A DNA stretch of 53,507 nucleotides from Okeania hirsuta. GTDB taxonomy: Bacteria > Cyanobacteriota > Cyanobacteriia > Cyanobacteriales > Microcoleaceae. The notes under the pieces are model-generated. The model was not told where the DNA came from, did no database searches, and saw only the letters and a list, made by a program, of their open reading frames with translations. Below are positions 8,321 through 44,421 of this stretch, piece after piece; within the stretch, counting starts at the first letter, position 1; the number at the start of each line of letters is the position of its first letter. The stretch is taken from positions 1-53,507 of the forward strand of contig NZ_RCBY01000026.1 in the NCBI RefSeq assembly GCF_003838195.1, read 5' to 3'. A program made the position numbers and the translations under genes.

Positions 8321-9340
8321 TTAACTAGCTAAATAATCATTCATATCTTGTTTTCTTTTACGAAGTTTACTTAGAGCTTCTCTTTCTATTTGTCGTACTC
8401 TTTCACGACTAATATTTAGGCGATCGCCAATTTTTGAGAGAGTCATACTTTGTCCATCCTCTAAGCCAAATCTTAATGCCAAAACTTGCTTTTGTTGGGG
8501 AGTCAGGTCAGTCATAATTGATTCTAAATCACTACGCATGGAAGATTGGAGAGCATAATCTTCTGGAGAAGCTCCTGTATCTTCTAGTAGGTCTCCTAAC
8601 TCCGTATCTTGATTGTCCCCTACCCGTAAATCTAGTGATAGAGGTAAGCGAGCGCGTTCCAAACATTCACGAATTTGTTTTGGAGTGAAACCTAGTTCTT
8701 CTGCTATTTCATGGGTAGTGGCAGAGCGTCCTAACTCTTGAGTTAGTTGGCGTTGGGCTTTTTTGATCTTATTCAGCTTTTCTGTAATGTGAATCGGCAA
8801 ACGAATTGTACGACCTTTTTCTGCTATGGCCCTAGTTATGGCCTGGCGAATCCACCAATAAGCATAAGTGGAAAATCTATAGCCCTTGGTAGGGTCAAAT
8901 TTTTCTACCCCTCTCTGCATACCGATAGTGCCTTCCTGTATTAAGTCAAGCAAATCTACATTTCGTTTGATATACTTTTTAGCAACAGATACTACCAATC
9001 GTAGATTGGCCTCCACCATTTTTCGTTTGGCTCTTTCACCTTCGCGAACAATTCGCTGCAATTCATGACTAGATAAGTTTGTGGCCTCAGCCCATTCTGC
9101 TATTGTCGGTTCGCGGCCTAAACTTTCGGTGAGGGTCTTATTTACTTCATGCAAAGCTGTGAAGCGTTGTACTTGTTTTCCATAAAGAATTTCTTCTTCA
9201 TGGGTTAATAGGGGGACACGGCCAATTTCTCTGAGGTAAGTGCGTACAGAATCGGTGTCTGAGATTTTTGTCTTCATAACTCTTCTCCCGCTAGATATCT
9301 CTACTGGTAGGGTTTCGAGCGCCCTGTTTTGAGTTAGCAA
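8321..9340 (-). CDS. RNA polymerase sigma factor, group 2 sigma-70 family
   Basis: Regions 2-4 are all present ([34 protein letters not shown], region 4.2 [19 protein letters not shown]). No region 1.1-size extension. Confidence 0.9.
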
Positions 9341-9963
9341 GAAAAGCGGGCGGGTATTGCGCTTTCCTTGGATTTTTTTTAAGAAGTTTGTTCTATGGCC
9401 ATTTGATATAATTAATTTGGCCTACAGAAATTCTAAATTATAAATTTGATATTTCTGAGATTTTAGATCTGGTCAAAAAACCAAATTATCTTTTATCTTT
9501 TGAATCTATTTGTAAGAATTTGTGGACAATAAAAGAAGTTTTACTATTTTTTGAGAATTTAGATTAGATTTTGACTAAGATTCAAGTGCTTTAGTACAGA
9601 ATCCAGATTGGATTGGCCTAAAGTACAGCTTTTTCGTTTCTTATCTATTCAGATAATTATGATGGCCTTTACACTACTCAATACTATGTTAAGAATGTTA
9701 ACATTTATTACGTCTTATGGCTATACCTATAAGGATGATTTTTCAGATGAATGAGTTTAATTACCTAAATTAGTTAAATTATCTATAAGAGGGTACTCAT
9801 AAATTCTTAAAAAAATTGCATCCTGCACAACAAAATCACAAAAATTTTGCAAAAATACTTAAACAAGGTCAAAAAAAGAGTATATGAAGTATATTTACTT
9901 GACTTTTGACTTTCAATTTTAAACTTTTGACTATCTTGAGTATGTCTTTAATTCTGTTTGCAT

Positions 9964-9984
9964 AACATTTCGCAGCGAAATGTT
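9964..9984. promoter_or_regulatory. Perfect palindrome AACATTTCG-CAG-CGAAATGTT about 60 bp upstream of the Anbu-like gene
   Basis: Seen directly. A weaker CCGC-GAA-GCGG palindrome follows at 10014-10024. Confidence 0.25.
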
Positions 9985-10041
9985 TGCTCAGAATTACTTA
10001 GTCATTTTTGGCTTCCGCGAAGCGGTTGAGTTACTTAATAT

Positions 10042-13918: not shown

Positions 13919-14729
13919 GGAAGAGAATTGAGAAAGATTTAGCAATGACTAAAGATATAGCAGTATGCGCTAGTATATTCACAAATTGCAGGAACTACCC
14001 AATAGATAAAAGTCTGATATAACTCCTAAGAAATAGCCTAGCTATTTGCTGATAGTATTTCTCACAAACATCGATCGTGCTTGTTATTACTAATGATATT
14101 AAATCCGGTTGAATACTTATCATATATTTGGGAGTGGGGAGTAGGAGAGTAGGGGCGAATGGCATTAGCGAACGCTCTCAGTAGATTTAGTATCCGTGCA
14201 GAGGATCGGTTTTTCCCAGGCTGCTATTAAACAAATGGACATGATATAAGTCCTAAAATATGTTTAAGAACTTATTAAGAATCTATATCAATAAAATTAA
14301 GGTTATGTTAGGTGATTTTTTGAATAAATTATAAATAATATCACCCATAAAAAAAAGGATTGTGCATGATGAACATTTCTTGCTACTAGGACTACTAAAC
14401 TAATTGTTTCTTATATATCTCCTAGATTTTCCTGCTATTTCTTACTTGCTCTCCAACCCCAACTCAATTGATGTAACAGATACCCCTTAATAAAACTTCA
14501 TATTTTATTGTTGATAAAAAATATTAATTGTGTTCAAATAAAATTATTGATAATAAAGCTCAATTATAGTAGTCCTATTTCCGCTATGTAGAAAATATCC
14601 AACAGAGCAAAGGTATAAGGAATAATCATCATCAAAATTTTTATTCTACTTTGGGATTTTTACAAATTATTTAGGACTGCTATAGAGCCTTCTTTAACTG
14701 ATCTTCATCAGACTGAGGACCAAATCTCT

Positions 14730-15581
14730 ATGCAAACACTTGGCAATTACGAGCAAAAACTAATATTACTACCTCATCTAGCAACATTAGGTATTGGTAT
14801 CGAAGCAGGGGTACAAACAATCGACACCTATCCCTACTATGTCATCGGTATGCTGCATCTCATCAGTTCTGCTGTTTTGGGAGCAGGAGGTATCTACCAT
14901 GCAGTTTTAGGGCCGAAACAGCTTGATGAGAAAGGTTTTGGCTACGACTGGGAAGATGGCAACAAGATGACTACTATTTTGGGTATTCATCTAGTGCTGT
15001 TGGGGGTGGGAGCATCTCTATTGGTCATTAAAGCAACGGTTTTAGGTGGTATTTACGATCCACTAATAGAACAAGTAAGGTTAATACAGCCTAATCTCGA
15101 TCCCGTAAGAATTTTCGGTTATCTGTTTGGCTTTAGTCCTAATGGTTGGACAATTACTGGCATGGCTAGCGTAGATAATCTCGAAGATGTGGTCGGTGGT
15201 CATGTCTGGGTGAGCCTACTCTGCACTGTTGGTGGTCTATTTCACATTATTTCCAAACCTACGGGTTGGGCAAAACAAATACTAATTTGGTCCGGAGAGG
15301 CTTACTTGTCTTACAGTTTAGGGGCACTTGCGATCGCAGGATTTAGCGTAGCTGTCTTTATCTCCACCAACGAAACTGTTTATCCTAGCGTGTTTTATAG
15401 TCCTATTGGCAGCGACTCTGTGCGAACTGCTCTTGCTACCGTTCATGCTGGATTAGGTTTCCTAGCTTTGCTCGGACATTTATGGCACGCTTACCGAGCG
15501 CGAGCTGCTACTCGTAAAGTATTTTATGGAACGTTCTTTGACTTTATGGCTAAGAATGTTACACCTATTACACCTGCTTGA
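14730..15581 (+). CDS. CP43'/IsiA-like chlorophyll-binding protein lacking transmembrane helix I
   Basis: 283 aa. Begins [10 protein letters not shown] then goes directly into [13 protein letters not shown] (helix II region). No helix-I sequence in any frame upstream. Confidence 0.6.
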
Positions 15582-15630: not shown

Positions 15631-16659
15631 ATGACTGTCGTAACTGATGAGAATCTGCAAATCCCTTGGCGGGCAGGTAATGCTCGGCTTGTTAACCTAT
15701 CTGGTAAGCTATTGGGCGCTCATGTAGCCCATGCTGGCTTAATTGTACTCTGGGCTGGAGCTATTACTTTGTTTGAAGTTGCCAACTTTGATTCCTCCCT
15801 ACCAATGTACGAACAGGGCTTAATTGTACTGCCTAATCTAGCCCGCTTGGGATTTGGAGTTGGTGAAGGAGGTGTCATTGATACCTACCCCTACTTTGTG
15901 ATTGGGGTACTGCATTTGATTAGTTCGGCGTTTTTAGGAGCAGGTGGTATATTCCACGCTCTCAGAGGTCCAGCCAAACTAGAAGACAAATTTTCCTTCT
16001 TTGGCTATAGCTGGGATAATCCAGGTAAAATGACAACTATTCTAGGTATACATTTAGTCTTATTAGGAATCGGAGCATTTTTACTTGTAGCAAAAGCGAT
16101 TGCATTTGGAGGGTTATACGATCCAGTAGTTCAAAATGTACGAGTAATATCAAGTCCCACTCTAAATCCTACTACCATTTTCGGCTACTTCTTCGGTACA
16201 GAAGGACGTTTCTGGCTGGCTGGTGTTAACTCTTTAGAAGATGTAGTAGGCGGTCACATTTGGATTGGTGCTATCTGCATTTTGGGTGGTATCTGGCATA
16301 TTCGCACCGTACCCTTTGACTGGGCTAAAGGCTTATTTGTCTGGTCAGGAGAAGCATATTTGTCTTACAGTATTGGCGCAGTCAGCTTAATGGCATTTGT
16401 CGCAACATTGTTTGTGTCCGTTAACTCCCTGGTATTTCCCACAGAATTTTTCGGACCAACTTTGACTCTGGTGTTCGATCGCTTTCCTGTGTTTGTTAGT
16501 ACTGATGGAGCCTTGACTGCAAGAGTATGGTTGGCAAATGCTCACTTCTGGTTAGGATTTTTCTTCCTGCAAGGACATATATTCCACGCCCTCCGGGCAG
16601 CAGGTTATAGCTTCACCGAAGGCAGAGTAGTCACATTTACAAGAGGTCAAGTAAGCTAG
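15631..16659 (+). CDS. isiA: iron-stress chlorophyll-binding protein IsiA (CP43')
   Basis: 342 aa. Full six-helix CP43' pattern ([32 protein letters not shown]...). Confidence 0.85.
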
Positions 16660-16661
16660 TT

Positions 16662-19436
16662 ATGACTGTAACTAAATCAAATCCATTAAAGTTTTTAGGC
16701 TTTTCCACAGATAATAATGTTGATGTTGCGAACTATGTTAGTGATTCCCAAGAACCTTATTCTTGGTGGGCAGGTAATTTTCGCTTTGTTAACTTGTCTG
16801 GAAAATTATTGGGAGCGCACATTGCTCATGCAGGGTTGATCGTACTCTGGGCTGGAGCAATGACTCTGTTTGAGCTATCAAAATTCGATCCTAGTCTAGC
16901 CATGTACGACCAAGGACTGATTTTGCTGCCCCACATGGCGACTCTGGGTATAGGGGTTGGCGCAAATGGTGAAATTATTGATACTTATCCCTACTTTGCT
17001 ATTGGTGTTATCCATCTCGTTAGTTCAGCAATTCTAGGCGCTGGTGGCATTTTCCATGCCGTGCTTGGACCTGACAAACTTGATGAAAAGGGATTTGGCT
17101 ATCAGTGGAATGATGGCAAGAAAATGACTACTATCCTTGGTATTCATCTACTGCTACTGGGGATGGGAGCATTTTTGCTAGTAGCCAAAGCTATGTATTT
17201 TGATGGTTTGTATGACCCGGCGATCGCCAATGTGCGACTGATTACTGAACCCACTCTCAACCCACAGACTATCTTCGGTTACCTCGTCGGTATCACCCCT
17301 GATGGCTGGACGTTGAAGGGTATGGCTGCTGTCAACTCTTTAGAAGATGTAATAGGCGGTCACATTTGGATTGGTAGTATCTGTATTCTGGGTGGTCTCT
17401 GGCATATTAATACTGCTCCTACAAAATGGGCTAAGGGTCTTTTTGTCTGGTCGGGAGAGGCATATCTTGCCTATAGTCAGGCAGCTCTGGCTTATATGGG
17501 TTTTTTCGCAGCCTACTTTGTCTGGGTGAATGATACAGTCTATCCTTCAGTATTTTATGGTCCTGTAGGTGTGACTAATGTTGATGGTACAATCACTCCT
17601 CGCACCTGGCTGATGTTGTTCCAACTCATCTTTGCCTGTCTGCTACTGGCAGGTCACTTTTGGCATGGTCTCAGAGCTAGAGCGATCGCCAGTGGATTTG
17701 TCTTCAGTAATATGAAGTTCAATCCCGGTGCCCTCTATGGAGACACTCAGTTTAATAACGAATCTCTAGTGACTGGTATTGTACAGCCTTTCCAGAACAA
17801 TCCTCAATTGGGTAATTTGGCAACCCCAATTAATTCCAGTCAGCTTACCATCACTTGGGTTAAGAACTTGCCAATTTACCGCAATGGTTTATCTCCTATT
17901 GCACGGGGTCTAGAAATTGGCATGGCTCATGGCTACCTATTATTAGGGCCTTTTCTCAAGCTCGGACCATTGCGTAACACCGACCAAGCTCTTCTGGCTG
18001 GAGGTGGTAGTGCATCTGGCTTAGTAGTGATTTTAAGTATCTGTCTGTTTGTTTATGGGGCTGGAGCAATGACTCTGTTTGAGCTATCAAAATTCGATCC
18101 TAGTCTAGCCATGTACGACCAAGGACTGATTTTGCTGCCCCACATGGCGACTCTGGGTATAGGGGTTGGCGCAAATGGTGAAATTATTGATACTTATCCC
18201 TACTTTGCTATTGGTGTTATCCATCTCGTTAGTTCAGCAATTCTAGGCGCTGGTGGCATTTTCCATGCCGTGCTTGGACCTGACAAACTTGATGAAAAGG
18301 GATTTGGCTATCAGTGGAATGATGGCAAGAAAATGACTACTATCCTTGGTATTCATCTACTGCTACTGGGGATGGGAGCATTTTTGCTAGTAGCCAAAGC
18401 TATGTATTTTGATGGTTTGTATGACCCGGCGATCGCCAATGTGCGACTGATTACTGAACCCACTCTCAACCCACAGACTATCTTCGGTTACCTCGTCGGT
18501 ATCACCCCTGATGGCTGGACGTTGAAGGGTATGGCTGCTGTCAACTCTTTAGAAGATGTAATAGGCGGTCACATTTGGATTGGTAGTATCTGTATTCTGG
18601 GTGGTCTCTGGCATATTAATACTGCTCCTACAAAATGGGCTAAGGGTCTTTTTGTCTGGTCGGGAGAGGCATATCTTGCCTATAGTCAGGCAGCTCTGGC
18701 TTATATGGGTTTTTTCGCAGCCTACTTTGTCTGGGTGAATGATACAGTCTATCCTTCAGTATTTTATGGTCCTGTAGGTGTGACTAATGTTGATGGTACA
18801 ATCACTCCTCGCACCTGGCTGATGTTGTTCCAACTCATCTTTGCCTGTCTGCTACTGGCAGGTCACTTTTGGCATGGTCTCAGAGCTAGAGCGATCGCCA
18901 GTGGATTTGTCTTCAGTAATATGAAGTTCAATCCCGGTGCCCTCTATGGAGACACTCAGTTTAATAACGAATCTCTAGTGACTGGTATTGTACAGCCTTT
19001 CCAGAACAATCCTCAATTGGGTAATTTGGCAACCCCAATTAATTCCAGTCAGCTTACCATCACTTGGGTTAAGAACTTGCCAATTTACCGCAATGGTTTA
19101 TCTCCTATTGCACGGGGTCTAGAAATTGGCATGGCTCATGGCTACCTATTATTAGGGCCTTTTCTCAAGCTCGGACCATTGCGTAACACCGACCAAGCTC
19201 TTCTGGCTGGAGGTGGTAGTGCATCTGGCTTAGTAGTGATTTTAAGTATCTGTCTGTTTGTTTATGGGGCGGTAGTGTTTCAAGGTTCTAGAGAACCAAG
19301 AGGCGTTTTACCGGAGAACCTACAAACTTATCAGGAATGGAGTTTGTTTACCTCTGGTTTTCTCATTGGAGGACTAGGCGGTGTAGTTTTTGCCTGCTTT
19401 ATCCTTATAGAAATCGGGCGAGCGGGAATTTTGTAA
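16662..19436 (+). CDS. IsiA-PsaL fusion protein with an internal in-frame tandem duplication of 403 aa
   Basis: CP43'-like domain followed by a PsaL-like domain (NLATPINSS...[36 protein letters not shown]). Residues from GAMTLFEL to FVYGA occur twice, identical. Confidence 0.75.
16852..19269 (+). repeat. Perfect direct tandem duplication, 2 x 1209 bp, inside the isiA-psaL ORF
   Basis: 16852-18060 is identical to 18061-19269 in my read. Sequence diverges after GTTTATGGGG. Confidence 0.85.
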
Positions 19437-33027: not shown

Positions 33028-33212
33028 ATAGTTACTTGTGAATTTTTGGACTGTTTAATATTAGAAGTTAACAATAGCATTTTATCAGTTTTTTTGTCTC
33101 AAATTCAATGCCCTAGTGTTAGACAAATTTTTATGTTGGCGACTGCCGTTTGCGTAGCATTCTGTAGGAAAATAATTAATAATTAATTATTACCGAAAAA
33201 TTGTGGTATAAA

Positions 33213-33410
33213 GCCTCCAGTTTTAAGGGGATAAAAAGCGGTCGTTTGCGGAGCATGACCTTAGGATGGGATGGCGATCTTCGGAGCGGCTCTGATAAGA
33301 GCGGGTCTCCTCGCCATATCCATGAGACCAAGAGAAGAAAAAATTTCATGATTAGTCAATCCTATCCGTTTTCAAGGAGAGGTAATTCTAAATTCTTAAT
33401 TCTAAATTCT
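33213..33410 (+). repeat. ~195-bp direct repeat, copy 1 (contains CTCTGATAAGAGCGGGTCTCCTCGCCATATCCATGA and AAGGAGAGGTAATTCTAAATTCTTAATTC)
   Basis: About 85% identical to 33527-33726. Partial relatives at 45640-45790 and 5427-5500 (reverse). Confidence 0.7.
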
Positions 33411-33526
33411 TAATTCTTGAACTCTCTTTGGCCAAGTTCTTTACATTGGACAAGTTTTTTCGCACTTTCAGGCGTTTTATCCCCTCAATCCATTTTTTTA
33501 ATCTTTTTTTACCAAATAATTAAGGT

Positions 33527-33726
33527 TTAAAGCCTCTCCTTTGAAGGAGAAACAAGCGGTCCTCTTCGGAGCTTCCCGTAGGGTGGGATGGCGCAATTCG
33601 GGGCAGCTCTGATAAGAGCGGGTCTCCTCACCATATCCATGATACCAAGAGAAGAAAAAATTTTCATGATTAGTCAATCCTATCCGTTTTCAAGGAGAGG
33701 TAATTCTAAATTCTTAATTCTTGAAA
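33527..33726 (+). repeat. ~195-bp direct repeat, copy 2
   Basis: See copy 1. Confidence 0.7.
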
Positions 33727-33779
33727 GATACCCTCTAGTAATTAGTATTAGAAGGTAGAGAGTTGAAGGATCATACAAT

Positions 33780-34724
33780 TCAAATATCTTGTCTATTTCT
33801 AGCATCTAAAAATTTTAATTGTTGATACAACATCCCAATTTTATTTAGCTGAATATCTGCTGCACCTGCCATTCGTAAAGGGTTGCCAATAATACTTTCT
33901 ATTTCTAAAGGTTGTCGTCGCTCATAATCAATTTTCATGCTAGTTAAATAAGGGTTTAACTTGTCAGTATGGTCTAACATATTTTGAATATAACTATTTG
34001 GAATTTCGCACTTACAACTTTTTGCACCCTCCAATACTTCTTGCATTATTTCTGTGATTAAGTTTCTAGTATTAGTATCTCCCATCATTTCATCAGTTCG
34101 AGCATCTAGAATTACTGACAAGCTGTTATAAGGAATATTCCAAACTAATTTTTTCCATCTTTCTTGGAATAAATCTTCACTCAAATTAACTTGTATTCCA
34201 GCACTTTCAAAATCTTGGGAAATTTCACGCATTTTATTAGTAATACCAGCAGGTTGATAATTTGTGGTATATTTTCCGATTCTAATCAAACCATAATCTA
34301 CATGGCGAATATGACCATAACCTATTTTATTAGAAGCAATATTAGATACTCCTCCAATTACTCTTTCCTCACCAACAATTTTGGCTATTTCAGGTTCTGT
34401 ACCCAATCCATTTTGTAAGAGTAAGACAACGTTATTTTCTTGGCACAAAGGTGGGAGTAATTCTGGTAATAAATAGTTTTGCGTTGTTTTTAATGCTACG
34501 AGAATTACATCACATTTTGGCATTTTATTAGTATTGTTATAGGCGTTAATTTGAGGGAGGGTAAAGTCGCCATTTTTGGATTCTATGATTAAGCCATTTT
34601 TGAGAACGTGCTGATAATCACTACGCAGTAAAAAATGAACTTCTAATCCTGCTTTTTGTAGTTTTGCACCGTAAAAACCTCCTAGTGCGCCACTGCCAAT
34701 AATCGCGTAAGTATTTTTTGACAT
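33780..34724 (-). CDS. panE: 2-dehydropantoate 2-reductase (ketopantoate reductase, ApbA/PanE family)
   Basis: N-terminal Rossmann motif AIIGSGALGGFYGAKL. Family-typical length. Confidence 0.75.
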   Translation of the reverse strand: MSKNTYAIIGSGALGGFYGAKLQKAGLEVHFLLRSDYQHVLKNGLIIESKNGDFTLPQINAYNNTNKMPKCDVILVALKTTQNYLLPELLPPLCQENNVVLLLQNGLGTEPEIAKIVGEERVIGGVSNIASNKIGYGHIRHVDYGLIRIGKYTTNYQPAGITNKMREISQDFESAGIQVNLSEDLFQERWKKLVWNIPYNSLSVILDARTDEMMGDTNTRNLITEIMQEVLEGAKSCKCEIPNSYIQNMLDHTDKLNPYLTSMKIDYERRQPLEIESIIGNPLRMAGAADIQLNKIGMLYQQLKFLDARNRQDI

Positions 34725-37059: not shown

Positions 37060-37506
37060 TTAACCCTTATTTTTAATCATCATTACATCAATAATATTAG
37101 TAGCTACTGCTTCAGAAATTTCCAAAGCATTATATAACTCATTCAAAAGTTGTTCCTCCTCTTCAGCAAGGTCTCCATCTACTAAAACCAAGTCTGTACT
37201 AACAGCAAAAACTGTTTCCCTTAACTCCTTTGGAAGTTTAGCAACTGCAGCATCAAACAAAGGCTTAATTTCTTGATTTTTAATCATATCGAGAAGACGG
37301 TCTTGCATTTCTGTTTTACGTTCTTTTGGATAATCACTAAACAGTTGCATACGAGAGAAAATATTATTAATACCTTGAGATTCACTCTTAGTAATAACAC
37401 CATCAGCAGCAACAGCAATTAAAGCGATCGCTGCAAAAGCTTCTGCCGGTTCTAATTGAATATCAGTAGCTTGTATTGTTGTTGTTCCTTGATCGAAAAG
37501 ACCCAT
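37060..37506 (-). CDS. TerB-domain (tellurite-resistance TerB-like) protein
   Basis: 148 aa, acidic, helical, with a TerB-like pattern (AAIALIAVAADGVITKSESQ...). Confidence 0.5.
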   Translation of the reverse strand: MGLFDQGTTTIQATDIQLEPAEAFAAIALIAVAADGVITKSESQGINNIFSRMQLFSDYPKERKTEMQDRLLDMIKNQEIKPLFDAAVAKLPKELRETVFAVSTDLVLVDGDLAEEEEQLLNELYNALEISEAVATNIIDVMMIKNKG

Positions 37507-37620
37507 TTTAGTACCTCATTAATGATTTTTTTACCATCTCTATTTTGGAAAAATATTAGGTGTTATTAAATAAGTTTTAGATTGAATCTACAACCTAAAA
37601 TTTACCACCTACTACCTTCT

Positions 37621-38976
37621 TCAATACTTCTCAAAAACTGTTAAATTAGCTTTGAGAAAATCAATAAATTGTCGTGCCGTTCGCCCAGAGCGACCATTAT
37701 ATTTCGTAGCCCATTGTAAAGCTTGATAGTCTAAATCTTCAGGATTTAGATTAATTTTTGCCTGTTTTGCCAGATGTCTAACAATTGTTAAATAAGTATC
37801 CTGGTTAGCAGGTTCAAAAGTTAAAGTTAAGCCAAAGCGATCGCTAAAAGAAAGCTTTTCTTGAACTGTATCCCAATTATGAACCTCATCACTATCTTTT
37901 GGGCGAGGGCGATCGTTAAAAAATTCTCTAATTAAATGCCTTCTATTTGATGTAGCATAGACTACCACATTTGTTGGTCTAGCAGTTAAATTACCCTCTA
38001 AAACAACTTTAAGAGCTTTAAAAGTATCATCATCTTCTTCAAAGGAAAGGTCATCGACAAAGATAATAAATTTTTGTGGAATATCGCGTAATTTTTCTAC
38101 AATTAATGGTAAATCTTTTAGGTTTGATTTAGCCACTTCGACTAAACGAAGATTGCGTTGACTATACTCATTTAATAAGGCTTTTATTAAAGAGGATTTG
38201 CCAGAACCGCGACTACCATAAAGTAATATATTAAGGGCTGAATATCCTGCTAGGAGAAATTCTGTATTTTTGATTAAGGCATCTTTTTGAAATTCATATC
38301 CGACCAATTCTTTTAATTCAACTGGGTCAGGGTAAGTAATAGTAAGTAGTTGACCGTTACGCCATTCAAAGGCAATTGATTCAGCAAATAAACCAGTGCC
38401 ATTATGATGATAATGAGTGGCTAAGGTCTCAATGGCATCTGCCCAATTTTCTAATTTTTTTAACTCGTCGTAGATAGCTTCTTTTTGTTGTGATTGTATT
38501 TCCCACGCAATAGGGGGATTCTCTAATTTAGCTATTGTTTTTACCCACTGACTAATTGTTTTACCACTGCACTGATAAAGATTTTGTAAAATTTGTAAAT
38601 CATGTTTTGCAGCTGCAATTAAATTTGGAGATAGGCTGGTAATATTTATTTTTTGAACTTGTTGACTAAAGGGATTATCATCTTGAATAATCTGAGCAAT
38701 TAGATATTCTTGCCAGGAAATATTTTGACTAGCAATATTTATAAACCAGTTACCATAAGCTTGAAGGCATTCTATAGCAACTCCATCATTTTTAGACAAA
38801 GATTCTAATAATTGGATAAAAGCTTCACCCACTGTTTTTTTTAGAACAGACTGATATAACAATAGAGATGCTATTTGCTGTTGTAAGTTTTGAATTTTGG
38901 CTAACACTTGGGAACCTAAACAAGACATAATTAATGATATGATTGCCTTATTAAATAAAGGATCAGCACTTAGCAC
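37621..38976 (-). CDS. AAA+ ATPase of the DUF815 / COG2607 type
   Basis: P-loop LLYGSRGSGKSSLIKAL; Walker B IIFVDDLSFEEDD. Confidence 0.6.
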   Translation of the reverse strand: MLSADPLFNKAIISLIMSCLGSQVLAKIQNLQQQIASLLLYQSVLKKTVGEAFIQLLESLSKNDGVAIECLQAYGNWFINIASQNISWQEYLIAQIIQDDNPFSQQVQKINITSLSPNLIAAAKHDLQILQNLYQCSGKTISQWVKTIAKLENPPIAWEIQSQQKEAIYDELKKLENWADAIETLATHYHHNGTGLFAESIAFEWRNGQLLTITYPDPVELKELVGYEFQKDALIKNTEFLLAGYSALNILLYGSRGSGKSSLIKALLNEYSQRNLRLVEVAKSNLKDLPLIVEKLRDIPQKFIIFVDDLSFEEDDDTFKALKVVLEGNLTARPTNVVVYATSNRRHLIREFFNDRPRPKDSDEVHNWDTVQEKLSFSDRFGLTLTFEPANQDTYLTIVRHLAKQAKINLNPEDLDYQALQWATKYNGRSGRTARQFIDFLKANLTVFEKY

Positions 38977-39730: not shown

Positions 39731-40185
39731 AAAGAAACGTAAGTATTTAGCCGTCAGCTTTCAGCTCCATTAGAACTAATGACTATAGCCTTTAAAGCAG
39801 AAGTTACCATTGACAGATTTTATCTAATTAAAAATATGAATTAAAAGTTTCCCTAGTAACTTCTAAAGTCTTAAAAAATGCTTACTTCATTTATTAATCA
39901 AGATGAGAGCTGACCACTAATCACTGTTTGTGGAGCATTCAGGCACGGAAATCCTTATACCAATTTCATAAACTTGAGCTACTTAGGTTTGGAGTAGTCA
40001 GTAGTCAGTAGTCAGTAGTCAGGAGGTAAGGTGAGTAGCCTTACTTTTTGAATTTGGTATTACAAAGAAACAAAGAATATGGAAGAGATAAAAAAGTAGA
40101 AACTTGCTCAATAGACATATAGATATCTCCAGAAAAGAGATAACAGGTAACAGGAAGAAATAATAGAAATCATCAATTATTTCTC

Positions 40186-40240
40186 CCTACTCCCCTACTC
40201 CCCTACTCCCTGCTCCCTACTCCCTACTCCCTAAATTGGG
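40186..40240. repeat. STRR array (CCCTACT heptamers)
   Basis: Direct reading. Confidence 0.8.
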
Positions 40241-40342
40241 ATTAATCAACCCATTAGCCGTACCAAAAAGATTAATTGGACTCTTACCATCAGTAATTAA
40301 AACACTCTGAAGACCAAGCCCCTACAACAACCTCGCCTGCAT

Positions 40343-41979
40343 TTATGGGCCAGCTTGAGCGATCGCCCGAATTGTCTCAGCCCCCAAAGCCTCCACTTTT
40401 TGCTGAAACTCAGTAGCAGTAATTTCAGCCATTTGCCTTGCCTTCTCAATCTCTAAATTATTCAGTGTCTGCTGATGGGCTAACTCAGTCTCCTGACGCG
40501 CCCTCAACTGAGCCATCTCAGCCTCATGGCGAATCCGTGCTGCTTCTACTTCCTGCTGCGCCAAATTCACCGCCAACTGGCCTTGAAAAGGAGATAACAT
40601 ATAAGCTTGAGGTCCATTGACTAATTTTAGTTCCCCACTTTGAACATCCCGTACATATATACCTTCATTTTTGTCTAGGGGAATAGCCTGAAGTTTTTCT
40701 AATACTTCTAATTCCACTGGGGGAATATAATCTCTTGGCCCAGTAATCATCCATAAATCTCCTGGTTGCCGAGTAATAACGTTTGCTCCTGTTCCCTCGG
40801 TGAAAGTTTCCTCAACTCTGATTAGGAGTGCTTCTTGTTCACCAAGAATATAGACCTTTTTAATTCCTGTTTCTAAATCTTCTCCTGGGTGCAAAAAGAA
40901 AGATGTTCTGCCCTGACGCACTTCTTTCATACCCCACTGCGGTTTACCATCTGCATCTATGGGATTAGTTACTATGCACCATTCGCGATCGCTTAAAGTA
41001 GTGATTTTGACTTCTCCCACTACTTCTTCATAAACGTCGGGAATATGAATTTCAGCATCTGCAAAAGTAACTAACTATTCATATCCCGCTTTGCGTTGCT
41101 GACCAAAAATATCAGTAAAAGTCCGTTTTGCTTTTAGATGTAGTGCTTGACGTTCGGTTAATACATAGGCATCAATAGTATCGACAATTTCTTCATCTAC
41201 TCCAGGCAAATAAGCACCTTCTTCCCTGACCAACCATTATTCCCCAGTTCTACGTCTGTTACCTTGACGATCTATACAATTTTGTCGTGCCAGCAGTCGT
41301 AAGGCTTGGTTAGGTTTAATTATTTTAGCTATAACTGTGACTACCACTTCAACTTCTACCCTGGGAGTGTAAGTTCCTGGCCCCTCAAATAACCATTCAT
41401 CCCCTGTCGTACGAGTGACAGTTTGAGACTCTCCTGCAACGATAACTGTATCAGTAAAATCTCGTATTGCTTTGAGACGTAGAGTTTGGTTTGTGTCAAT
41501 TACTTGTAGTTGAGTTACATCTTCTTCGAGTATTTCTCCTGGATATAGTGGGAAAGGGTCTTGAGCAAAGCGAATTTCCAGATCGCCATATTTGAGTCTA
41601 ATTTAACCATACTCATCGGCCACAAGTTGATCTGAACTATAGCAATGTGCGCTGGCATATTTACACATTATTTTTTGTACACCTTTTCTAAAATGCACTT
41701 TGAACTGGGCCTTGTAAATACCTGAGCGCTCATTGCTATATTTCTTAGTACAGGGTTAGCTGCTACACAATAATGGCGAGGTGGAACTACAATTGTCAGT
41801 TGTGGTTGTCAGACTAACCTTTCTGCATCTCCAAGGGTAATGGTTTGAGGGCCTATTTCTAGTCTGATAACACCAGTGTTATTGTCAAGAACATGAATAT
41901 ACTGTTGTGGCTTCAGGAGAATTATACCATTGTTCTCTATTGTAATTGGATATTCTGTGGTACTTTTTATTTTACTCAT
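40343..41979 (-). pseudogene. Major vault protein (MVP) homolog, pseudogenized by four in-frame stops and a 103-bp inverted-repeat insertion
   Basis: Reconstructed frame: MSKIKSTTEYPITIENNGIILLKPQQYIHVLDNNTGVIRLEIGPQTITLGDAERLV*QPQLTIVVPPRHYCVAANPVLRN [insertion] [33 protein letters not shown]...[22 protein letters not shown]...TGE*WLVREEGAYLPGV...KAGYE*LVTFADAEIHIPDVYEEVVGEVKITT... This is MVP-repeat signature throughout. The C-terminus ends TIRAIAQAGP like the vault cap helix. Confidence 0.75.
41638..41740. mobile_element. 103-bp insertion with 16-bp imperfect TIRs (TATAGCAATGTGCGCT / AGCGCTCATTGCTATA) interrupting the MVP reading frame
   Basis: MVP homology is continuous across it once it is removed. 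Its length is not a multiple of 3. Confidence 0.55.
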
Positions 41980-42042
41980 AGTTTAATAGTTTTGTAACTA
42001 GAAATCTTAAGTTATTCATTATCCATTATTAATTATCTCTTA

Positions 42043-44421
42043 CTATCGTCGCCAAATTTTAATAGTTCTGTCTTTACTACCACTAGCAATACTATTACCA
42101 TCAGGACTAAAAGTAACTGTATAAATCTCATCTTTATGCCCGGTCAAAGTACTAACTAATTCTCCTGTTTCTAAATCCCATATCTTAATATTATTATCCT
42201 TACTGCCACTAGCAATATATCGACCATCTTCGCTAATATCAACAGATACAACTTCAGCAGTATGACCAAGAATAGTTTTGATTAATTCTCCTGTTTTTAA
42301 GCTCCAAATTTTAATAGTATTATCGTAACTCCCACTCACTATTTTTTCCCCATCTGGACTAATATCAACAGACCTAATTACTCCTTCATGTCCAGTCAAT
42401 GTATTAATTAATTCTCCAGTATATAAATCTTCAATTTTTATAGTTTGATCTGCACTACCACTAACCAATATTCTGCCGTCAGGACTAATAGCAATAGAAT
42501 AAACTACATCTGAGTGATCGGGGAAATTAAAAATTAAGAAACCTGTTTCTAAATCCCAAACTTTAACTGTTTTATCTCCACTAGCACTAGCAATTGTTTG
42601 ATTATCAGAACTCATAGCAACTGACCAAACAGGTGCCCAATGTTCAAATACTCGAAATAATTCTCCTGTTTCCAAATTCCAGATCATTACTCTCCAATCA
42701 TAAGTACCTACCACTAATTTAGTACCATTATTATTCAAAGCAACTGACCAAATTGGAGAATCATCTGCAGCTAATGTGTTGATAATTTTTCCTGTAGGAA
42801 CTTCTAAAATTTTTACTGTTGTATCTCTACTTCCAGTAACTAAATTTTCGCCATTATCACTAAATGCAAGAGCGCCTATAGAAGCATTAAACCTAGACAA
42901 ATCTTCAACTTGATAATTCTGCCAATTTAGACCTTGTTGACAATTTTGTAAAAGAGATTGAGCTTCAGCAAAAATGCTAGATTTTTCACTAATTAAAGTT
43001 CCTTGATTGATACATTCTTCATAGTTGCGCTCTATGTATAAGTTTTTTACAAAATTAAATTTTGCCGATTCTTGTTCTTGCTGTTGTAATACTTGTTGTT
43101 GACGTAATTGTAAATAATTTTGGAATTTAAGATATCTATATATAGCAAAGATTATTACAATTAAGGTAGCGATAAATCCTAAAATCAACTGCCAGTTAAA
43201 AGATGATTGTTTGTTATTATTGCTAAATATTTTTTTAAATTTAGTAAGTAGAGATTTTGGTAAAACTCTGTTTTCTATTAATTCTATATCTTCTTGAGTT
43301 AGTCCTAAAATTTGCTGTAGACGCTCTAACTCCTGGCGAGTTTCTTGACTAAAAGGATATTCTTCCTGAATCGCAGCTTTTAATGTTTCTTCATATCTTT
43401 CTCCTTTCATCCGATATTTACGGTAAGGATTTAATACTTCATCCTCAATTATTTCCGTTTCTTCCCGGGAGAGTTCTAAACTTTCTCTAAGTTCATCTAA
43501 AATTCTTCTCCCGACAATAGAAATATCTCCTCTATCGCTAGCTCGACGAATAACCTCTTCCCGATAAATTTCTTTATTATCTGTAGCGAAACTTGGAAAC
43601 TCATTAATTTTTTTTAAATCTGCTATAACTTCTGCTGCTGACTGGTAACGTTCGTGAAAGTTATAGCGCACCATTTTATCTAAAATATCTGCTAGAGAAG
43701 TAGAACAATTTGTTAGGTATCGCCAAAAAATCTCTTTTTTTTCACCATTTTCATTATCCTTTAGTTTCGATAATTCGCTGCTAGGCAATCCCGTAATTGC
43801 CTGAATGCCAATCATTCCTAAAGCATAAATATCACTATTTAATTGGGGATTATATTCAAATTGTTCAATTGGCATATATTCCATTGTGCCAATCCTAGCT
43901 GTAGGATTTTGCTGACCAATATTAATTTCTTTAACAGCTCCAAAATCAATTAATACTAATTGATTATCCGATTTTCTTCTAATTAAATTAGCAGGCTTAA
44001 TATCTCGATGAATAACACTATTTTCATGCACAAATACTAAAATTTCTAATACTTCATTGATAATTAAAATTACTTGTTTTTCAGATAGGGGTTTACCAGG
44101 TAATATTTCATTGTCTAAAGATTGACCAGGAATAAAAGATTGAACTAGAAAAAACTCTCGATCTTCTTCAAAATATGCAAGTAGTTTAGGAATTCGATCA
44201 TGTTGAGAAAGCTTTTCTAGCATCTGTGCTTCTTTTTGAAATCGATCGCGAACGATATTAATTAATCTTCGATCATAAATACTTGGTTGTAGATGCTTAA
44301 TAAAACATTGTGCTTCTCCAGGACGACGAATGTCTAAGGCCAGATAAGCATGGCCAATTTCCCCTGATTCAATAATTTTAATAATTTGATAGCGTCCATC
44401 TAAAATATTACCAATCATCAT
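42043..44421 (-). CDS. Ser/Thr protein kinase with a C-terminal WD40 repeat domain
   Basis: Kinase subdomains (HRDIKPANL, DFG, APE-like), a central TM/coiled-coil region, then seven WD repeats (GH...WD). Confidence 0.9.
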   Translation of the reverse strand: MMIGNILDGRYQIIKIIESGEIGHAYLALDIRRPGEAQCFIKHLQPSIYDRRLINIVRDRFQKEAQMLEKLSQHDRIPKLLAYFEEDREFFLVQSFIPGQSLDNEILPGKPLSEKQVILIINEVLEILVFVHENSVIHRDIKPANLIRRKSDNQLVLIDFGAVKEINIGQQNPTARIGTMEYMPIEQFEYNPQLNSDIYALGMIGIQAITGLPSSELSKLKDNENGEKKEIFWRYLTNCSTSLADILDKMVRYNFHERYQSAAEVIADLKKINEFPSFATDNKEIYREEVIRRASDRGDISIVGRRILDELRESLELSREETEIIEDEVLNPYRKYRMKGERYEETLKAAIQEEYPFSQETRQELERLQQILGLTQEDIELIENRVLPKSLLTKFKKIFSNNNKQSSFNWQLILGFIATLIVIIFAIYRYLKFQNYLQLRQQQVLQQQEQESAKFNFVKNLYIERNYEECINQGTLISEKSSIFAEAQSLLQNCQQGLNWQNYQVEDLSRFNASIGALAFSDNGENLVTGSRDTTVKILEVPTGKIINTLAADDSPIWSVALNNNGTKLVVGTYDWRVMIWNLETGELFRVFEHWAPVWSVAMSSDNQTIASASGDKTVKVWDLETGFLIFNFPDHSDVVYSIAISPDGRILVSGSADQTIKIEDLYTGELINTLTGHEGVIRSVDISPDGEKIVSGSYDNTIKIWSLKTGELIKTILGHTAEVVSVDISEDGRYIASGSKDNNIKIWDLETGELVSTLTGHKDEIYTVTFSPDGNSIASGSKDRTIKIWRR

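Follow-up and report, generated by a model that had tools for sequence, protein, structure and literature searches.

A 53,507-nucleotide (53.5-kb) stretch of Okeania hirsuta DNA (contig NZ_RCBY01000026.1, positions 1 to 53,507; hereafter the window) carries on its minus strand, between positions 40226 and 41979, the remains of a gene for the major vault protein (MVP). We conclude with high confidence that this locus is a pseudogene of the cyanobacterial MVP that lost its function recently. Since six stop codons and one frameshifting insertion leave no uninterrupted open reading frame (ORF), the locus is classed as a pseudogene of the family and not as a functional member. A preliminary description of this DNA, made from the letters alone, had placed its relatives among the Nostocales, but O. 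hirsuta belongs to the Oscillatoriales, family Microcoleaceae.

Identity and lesions of the MVP remnant

A conceptual product of 550 residues was obtained from a minus-strand translation that begins with the ATG at 41979, with 101 bases at an inverted-repeat element taken out and every stop written as X. This product matched the Pfam families Vault (PF01505; 9.8e-61, in 4 stretches), Vault_2 (PF17794; 1.6e-34, in 2 stretches) and Vault_4 (PF17796; 4.2e-08), and it aligned with rat MVP (7pkz_A) at E=2.7e-159. Residues 17-430 were colinear with rat MVP 5-410 (repeats R1 to R8), and residues 431-546, which contain two stop codons, matched rat MVP 735-850 (E=2.7e-22), corresponding to the distal cap helix and the cap ring only. 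Judged by these profile and alignment scores, the MVP identity is far above chance. The motifs from which an MVP homolog had first been recognized on the minus strand are indeed found in the translation (YE*LV, IHIPDVYEEV, FFLHPGE, NEGIYVRDV and TIRAIAQAGP). Among 2588 homologs, the best were full-length cyanobacterial MVPs of 860-930 aa with the MVP_shoulder domain (PF11978). Every intact ortholog carries PF11978, for which the remnant gave no Pfam match.

The gene had been thought to end at 40343, after the cap-helix-like TIRAIAQAGP. That sequence exists, but the proposed end is itself a nonsense codon (within AGPEMQ); homology runs past 40343 through a sixth stop and cap-ring sequence to about 40226, which places the real 3' end ~117 bp further. 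In public gene calls the region appears as four ORFs (56, 36, 52 and 225 aa), of which the longest is labeled "hypothetical protein." The longest stop-free stretch overlapping the locus measures 243 aa and the longest called ORF 225 aa, against ~850-930 aa for an intact MVP. The fragments called "hypothetical protein" are thus parts of a pseudogene, which corrects the public annotation.

A scan of species-representative genomes yielded 45 MVP loci. The closest intact MVP was that of Okeania sp. SIO3I5 (locus L001), a 926-aa ORF at L001 10001-12781, which lies in the same gene order as in the window: kinase-WD40, MVP, Tmemb_14 (opposite strand), DUF815 and TerB. The search for intact orthologs that had been suggested was therefore successful and, with an intact 926-aa ortholog at the syntenic position, the O. 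hirsuta locus is a unitary pseudogene. The remnant and the SIO3I5 gene share 88-94% DNA identity and align pairwise in three colinear blocks. A segment of 165 bp that the window does not have was inserted in L001 and L042 only; at that point the window is contiguous with rat MVP. The remnant and its lesions are listed below; "L050" denotes a sister Okeania lineage described further on, and the insertion is a miniature inverted-repeat transposable element (MITE).

40226..41979, minus strand: MVP pseudogene remnant in full, which starts with the ancestral ATG (41979) and reaches the last cap-ring codons that still align, delimited by Pfam, rat MVP and SIO3I5 alignments
41809..41811, minus strand: nonsense codon 1, TTA (Leu) to TGA; O. 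hirsuta lineage only, TTA being kept in L050 and all outgroups
41739..41740, no strand: TA target-site duplication, copy 1 (filled versus empty site)
41640..41738, no strand: MITE of 99 bp with imperfect terminal inverted repeats of ~26 nt; O. hirsuta lineage only
41638..41639, no strand: TA target-site duplication, copy 2 (filled versus empty site)
41603..41605, minus strand: nonsense codon 2, CAA (Gln) to TAA; common to L050, hence older
41237..41239, minus strand: nonsense codon 3, GAA (E of EWLV) to TAA; common to L050
41075..41077, minus strand: nonsense codon 4, TGG (W of EWLV) to TAG; common to L050
40587..40588, minus strand: junction of a 948-bp deletion, from the alignment blocks against L001; common to L050
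40343..40345, minus strand: nonsense codon 5, GAA (in AGPEMQ) to TAA; O. hirsuta lineage only, L050 having GAA
40322..40324, minus strand: nonsense codon 6, GAG (in LLEGLGL) to TAG; common to L050
40183..40233, no strand: heptamer tandem repeat CTCCCTA x7 (tandem repeat finder), replacing the ancestral last MVP codons and stop

Each of the six in-frame stops, among which all three stop codons are represented, differs at one base from the sense codon that three outgroups retain. The preliminary description had reported four of them (41809-41811 TGA, 41603-41605 TAA, 41237-41239 TAA and 41075-41077 TAG) at exactly these coordinates, and the intact orthologs confirm that the last two hit the E and W of the EWLV motif. 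Its conclusion that the gene is dead stands, but its list of lesions lacked two nonsense codons and the largest lesion, the 948-bp deletion. This deletion is net in-frame and comprises 316 codons (L001 gene positions 1457-2404, about rat MVP residues 411-734); at its junction, the rat MVP alignment leaps from residue 410 to 735. By the domain boundaries of the rat vault structure, the lost segment spans the last part of R8, all of R9, the shoulder domain and the proximal half of the cap helix. The apparent lack of the shoulder, noted early on, is accordingly real and corresponds to a deletion relative to the intact ortholog. At the 3' end, the alignment to L001 diverges after 40239.

The insertion had been described as a frame-shifting element of 103 bp with 16-bp terminal inverted repeats (TIRs). 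An inverted-repeat-flanked, frame-shifting insertion is present, but with other dimensions. The empty site, CTAAGAAATAGTTCAG, is preserved in L050 (GCA_010692685.1), an Okeania lineage of 99% identity, which establishes that the insertion consists of 99 bp plus a duplicated TA, for a net gain of 101 bp and a frame shift of +2. The ends of the element read TAGCAATG...CATTGCTA; its TIRs, ~26 nt long and imperfect, match at 21/26 positions (15/16 over the outer 16 nt), and it is non-coding. A two-TIR pattern scan of metagenome contigs recovered 14 related elements of 99-103 bp at ~11 distinct sites, with variable centers and a TA on both sides in all of them. No further copy was found in the window or in ~0.7 Mb of retrieved loci beyond the locus itself; the recurrence of the element, which had been proposed as a check, is seen in the metagenome contigs. 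The element has the inverted repeats, TA duplication, absence of coding capacity and multiple sites of a MITE. It resembles the Stowaway-like TA-targeting MITEs mobilized by IS630/Tc1-mariner transposases in its TA duplication, TIRs, non-coding nature and multiple copies. A TA duplication is typical of IS630/Tc1-mariner-type mobilization, and from the TA duplication alone we presume an IS630 assignment. The locus thereby documents a family of TA-targeting 99-bp MITEs for which one insertion can be dated and its empty site is known.

Two other matches to the TIR pattern consist of a tRNA gene surrounded by the same 13-nt inverted repeat, TAGCAATGTGCGC...GCGCACATTGCTA (L066 11428-11518; L068 6532-6622); occurring in two unrelated metagenome contigs, they are probably due to chance. 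In the window itself, a lone half-TIR-like match at 13956-13971, TATAGCAGTATGCGCT, has 2 mismatches and no recognizable partner arm, and may be either a decayed MITE copy or a chance match.

Order and recency of the decay

Comparison with L050 orders the lesions. L050 has the 948-bp deletion and stops 2, 3, 4 and 6 and is devoid of the MITE and of stops 1 and 5; its fragment ORF is 232 aa long, versus 225 aa in the window. The deletion and the four common stops are therefore older, whereas the MITE and the two other stops are recent and specific to O. hirsuta. The ancestor had a full-length MVP of ~870-930 aa (estimated from intact orthologs), with nine repeats, shoulder, cap helix and cap ring, located between the kinase-WD40 and Tmemb_14 genes. 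Purifying selection on it was strong for almost all the time since O. hirsuta and SIO3I5 split. The common ancestor of O. hirsuta and L050 then gained the 948-bp deletion and four nonsense substitutions, and the O. hirsuta lineage subsequently gained two more nonsense substitutions and the 99-bp TA-targeting MITE. The locus would at present give no functional product, the short ORFs annotated as "hypothetical protein" being leftovers.

The ratio of nonsynonymous to synonymous substitution rates (dN/dS) of the remnant against L001 was 0.164, with a synonymous divergence (dS) of 0.38, while four intact neighbors gave 0.22-0.38. A pairwise dN/dS of 0.16 argues for a recent inactivation. The O. 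hirsuta branch carries 60 synonymous, 35 missense and 6 nonsense substitutions, numbers very similar to the 63, 38 and 0 on the branch of the intact L001 gene. On this substitution record, the gene still worked and was well constrained along nearly the entire O. hirsuta branch. Since the split from L050, the remnant has accumulated 12 differences between the window and L050 (2 synonymous, 8 missense and 2 nonsense), for which the neutral expectation is 2.7, 8.8 and 0.55, respectively. The post-split pattern thus looks close to neutral in what is a small sample (n=12). Ten of the 12 changes are GC->AT, and they are divided between the two lineages as follows.

Window lineage, post-split: 8 changes (2 synonymous, 4 missense, 2 nonsense)
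L050 lineage, post-split: 4 changes (all missense)

Several features of composition and mutation accompany this decay. The sequence GTCACC has become GTTATC, by two C>T changes, twice in the pseudogene (41867/41869 and 41442/41444) in the O. hirsuta lineage, and L050 and all outgroups keep GTCACC. A genome-wide avoidance of GTCACC was rejected, with 8 sites against 10.8 expected in the window, as was mutagenesis of the type caused by diversity-generating retroelements, since the mutated bases are not adenines. The MVP gene is compositionally foreign or codon-biased: the remnant (window 40000-41500) has a GC content of 0.40-0.43 and a third-position GC content (GC3) of 0.29-0.33, versus 0.30-0.33 and 0.15-0.25 in neighboring genes. 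Divergence between O. hirsuta and L050 amounts to 0.7% in the kinase-WD40 gene and MVP remnant (40226-44421) and to 1.5-2.2% in DUF815 and TerB (37060-38976), with far greater divergence in the intergenic repeats beyond 36900. Recombination may have left a boundary here.

Related losses, the kinase-WD40 neighbor and alternative readings

MVP loss is recurrent in the Okeania/Dapis clade. In Dapis sp. (L041), the MVP start codon is gone (ATG>ATC), and the gene has a different deletion of 1442 bp and a 4-bp insertion; in Okeania sp. SIO2F4 (L042/L044), codon 9 of the gene is a stop and 1 bp has been deleted. As no lesion of the window is common to Dapis or SIO2F4, the inactivations are independent. 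The SIO2F4 5' fragment (L042 about 1250-1440) abuts sequence translating as ...RRVLIPKPNSDEKRPLGIPTIHERALQ, and the 3' part of the gene lies on another contig (L044). Translations of this kind are typical of group II intron reverse transcriptases, and a retroelement probably interrupts this MVP gene. Only ~75 degraded 3' MVP codons are left in Okeania sp. SIO2C9 (L051) and in a further metagenome-assembled genome (MAG; L052), and the locus is rearranged in SIO1I7 (L053). Intact copies persist in SIO3I5 and a few relatives. Outside the clade, the ORF is intact in 36/38 complete MVP loci. At two MVP loci outside the clade the longest stop-free stretch is short: 488 aa at L024 9959-12874 (Moorena bouillonii PNG), where the MVP span is ~300 bp longer than usual, and 741 aa at L040 10001-12618. 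These two may be additional broken MVP genes, or their assemblies may be in error.

Upstream of the remnant, on the same strand, lies an intact kinase gene.

42043..44421, minus strand: Ser/Thr protein kinase with 7 WD40 repeats, 792 aa, intact (WP_338043159.1; Pfam Pkinase 9.6e-34, WD40 6.7e-71)
41980..42042, minus strand: spacer of 63 nt from the kinase-WD40 stop to the MVP ATG, with no terminator-like site

The preliminary description had noted that MVP starts close after the kinase-WD40 stop on the same strand; the adjacency holds, with a spacer of 63 nt and not 64. The kinase gene borders MVP in 3 of the 45 scan loci (the window, L001 and L041), all in the Okeania/Dapis clade; besides the window, L001 and L041 alone have a kinase domain upstream of MVP. 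The arrangement also occurs in two further Okeania pseudogene assemblies. No neighbor of MVP is conserved across the 45 loci, the best neighbor cluster being present in 7/45. The L001 spacer measures 1146 bp (8855-10000), with a 163-bp tandem duplication and an insert of ~810 bp just before the ATG; that of L041 measures 0.85 kb (9134-10000) and contains a repeated unit of ~310 bp unrelated to the L001 insert. Because these long spacers result from unrelated lineage-specific insertions, the 63-nt spacer of the window is probably ancestral. A consensus scan of the locus found neither a terminator nor an above-chance promoter in the 63-nt spacer. The kinase-WD40/MVP adjacency is real and ancestral to the Okeania/Dapis clade, and the two genes may have been co-transcribed in the ancestor. 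Heptamer and GGATAAT-type short repeats occur everywhere in Okeania/Dapis intergenic regions, which are highly plastic.

The first question in weighing a recent pseudogene against other readings is whether the lesions are real, and we give practically no credence to the view that the stops are sequencing or assembly errors, or are recoded by read-through, in a gene that is in fact intact. Four loci from GCA_003838225.1, GCA_010672745.1 and GCA_010672625.1 match the 2-kb locus with 100% identity, the window representing a fourth assembly, and two of the assemblies with the identical locus are environmental MAGs. This identity across four assemblies shows that the stops are not sequencing errors; base-calling errors, on which the inactivation might have foundered, are thus excluded. 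Nor is the locus an artefact, since the deletion and four stops recur in L050, a lineage that differs at other sites. Stop-codon read-through and an alternative genetic code were likewise rejected: the six stops include TAA, TAG and TGA, read-through could overcome neither the frame-shifting insertion of 101 bp nor the deletion of 948 bp, and the neighboring genes form normal ORFs under the standard code. Other observations do weigh against a simple history in which the gene was inactivated and then drifted. The 60/35/6 count on the O. hirsuta branch resembles that of an intact gene plus six stops, and under uniform mutation six stops imply ~95 neutral missense changes, a number that was not observed. 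Nonsense changes exceed what the missense changes would lead one to expect, with a two-phase Poisson p ranging from 1e-4 for a uniform spectrum to 0.1 for an empirical AT-biased spectrum with weak prior constraint; the simple model fits only moderately well. The gene is Glu/Gln-rich, ~15% of C>T and of G>T changes in it create a stop, and an AT-biased spectrum lifts the nonsense fraction from 4.6% to 7-9%, which removes much of the excess. The locus was picked for its many stops, which inflates the nonsense-excess statistic, and we regard the excess as no more than suggestive. A residual function of a fragment, such as the 225-aa ORF at 40343-41020 (WP_240038893.1), is also formally possible, although very improbable. 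Such a functional short protein could be encoded by this ORF, which comprises repeats 5-8 and a cap-helix tail, figures among the gene calls, does not differ between six contigs and has few substitutions inside, or by the 56-aa N-terminal ORF. We place very little faith in this reading, because the 225-aa ORF starts at an internal GTG in mid-repeat, is devoid of the shoulder and cap helix needed for MVP assembly, and ends at a recent nonsense mutation absent from the sister lineage, where the ORF has 232 aa. The changes across the locus since the split look neutral, and the low divergence reflects recency, as neighbors differ by only 0.7-2.2%.

Two further readings accept the pseudogene and concern its cause and its context. 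MVP may have become costly or harmful in Okeania/Dapis, or the internally deleted protein toxic, so that knock-outs, including the surplus stops, were favored. This would fit the finding, in close relatives and after strong constraint (dN/dS 0.16), of at least 3 differently lesioned pseudogenes and two near-complete deletions, as well as the excess of nonsense over missense changes on the O. hirsuta branch. We nevertheless consider adaptive loss unlikely: after one upstream stop, later stops are neutral and selection cannot account for all six, the AT-biased spectrum leaves the nonsense excess weak, and intact MVP survives in several Okeania-like lineages, in addition to the choice of the locus for its many stops. 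Only tentatively, then, can one imagine a recent shift in selection that made MVP loss advantageous, after at least four or five independent knock-outs in closely related lineages; possible causes of such a shift are a phage or grazer target, an expensive, highly expressed shell, or a toxic internally deleted subunit. If this were true, the Okeania/Dapis clade would be a natural knock-out series for finding the role of bacterial MVP. Slightly more doubtful still is the proposal that kinase-WD40 and MVP formed a functional two-gene module, for example with the WD40 protein as a partner analogous to TEP1, of which the pseudogene would mark the break-up. The two genes share a strand, are separated by 63 nt with no terminator-like site, and stay adjacent in Okeania SIO3I5 and Dapis, and the short spacer of the window looks ancestral. 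But the kinase gene is a neighbor of MVP in one clade only among the 45 loci and is intact, at 791-792 aa, in lineages whose MVP is broken or almost deleted. Matches of its product to the TEP1 beta-propeller Pfam family are generic WD40 cross-matches among 65 WD40-type families, and the protein has no TROVE, NACHT or DUF4062 domain. Because the adjacency is clade-limited and kinase-WD40 outlives MVP, the former two-gene unit of the preliminary description is not supported as a functional unit.

Known vault proteins and other features of the window

The recently inactivated gene belongs to a known bacterial MVP family and does not represent a new kind of system. The MVPs of Moorena/Lyngbya (F4Y3B4), Oscillatoria acuminata (K9TKX8) and Microcoleus PCC 7113 (K9WB38) are of the same family, with 68-78% aa identity over the retained parts. 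Those genes are intact, 860-930 aa long and carry PF11978, whereas the O. hirsuta copy is interrupted by six stops and a MITE and is without 316 internal codons and its original 3' end. Compared with eukaryotic MVP (rat and human structures, among them PDB 4V60, 4HL8, 7PKZ and 2QZV), the remnant is colinear over R1-R8 and the distal cap and has no equivalent of MVP 411-734. Genomes of the Trichodesmium/Okeania group are rich in pseudogenes and repeats, and the O. hirsuta locus likewise combines multiple-hit decay, a mobile element, heptamer repeats and plastic intergenic regions.

To our knowledge, a vault particle has been demonstrated in no bacterium, no experiments on bacterial MVPs exist, and what vaults do has yet to be settled. 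Cyanobacterial MVPs entered the literature in 2013; the homologs in Oscillatoriales are ~54% identical to the eukaryotic protein, and the label "colicin uptake protein" usually borne by cyanobacterial MVPs is a mis-annotation (Daly et al. 2013, PMC3762200; Sokolskyi 2019, bioRxiv 10.1101/872010). Neither of these two papers reports a bacterial vault particle or function. The MVP shoulder holds a pocket for adenine nucleotides, ADP-ribose or NAD (2026 preprint, bioRxiv 10.64898/2026.05.01.722283), and the shoulder with the reported ADP-ribose pocket is part of the region deleted here. Near-isogenic Okeania lineages show MVP intact, freshly broken, heavily decayed or deleted, and form a comparative set for the role of MVP, which can be used to look for vault-like particles and for differences in phenotype and transcriptome.

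An Rfam search over the whole window gave nothing in or near the MVP locus, including no vault-RNA-like match. Elsewhere, it gave four tandem full-length matches to IsrR (119-131 bits) on the minus strand, at 14949-15123, 16012-16189, 17106-17283 and 18315-18492. IsrR is the antisense RNA of isiA, so that the four matches imply a four-copy tandem array of isiA-like genes. At about 33037-34427 of the window (L046 14550-15940), adjacent and slightly overlapping calls of 83 aa and 389 aa both match cytochrome P450, which suggests a split or frameshifted P450 gene.

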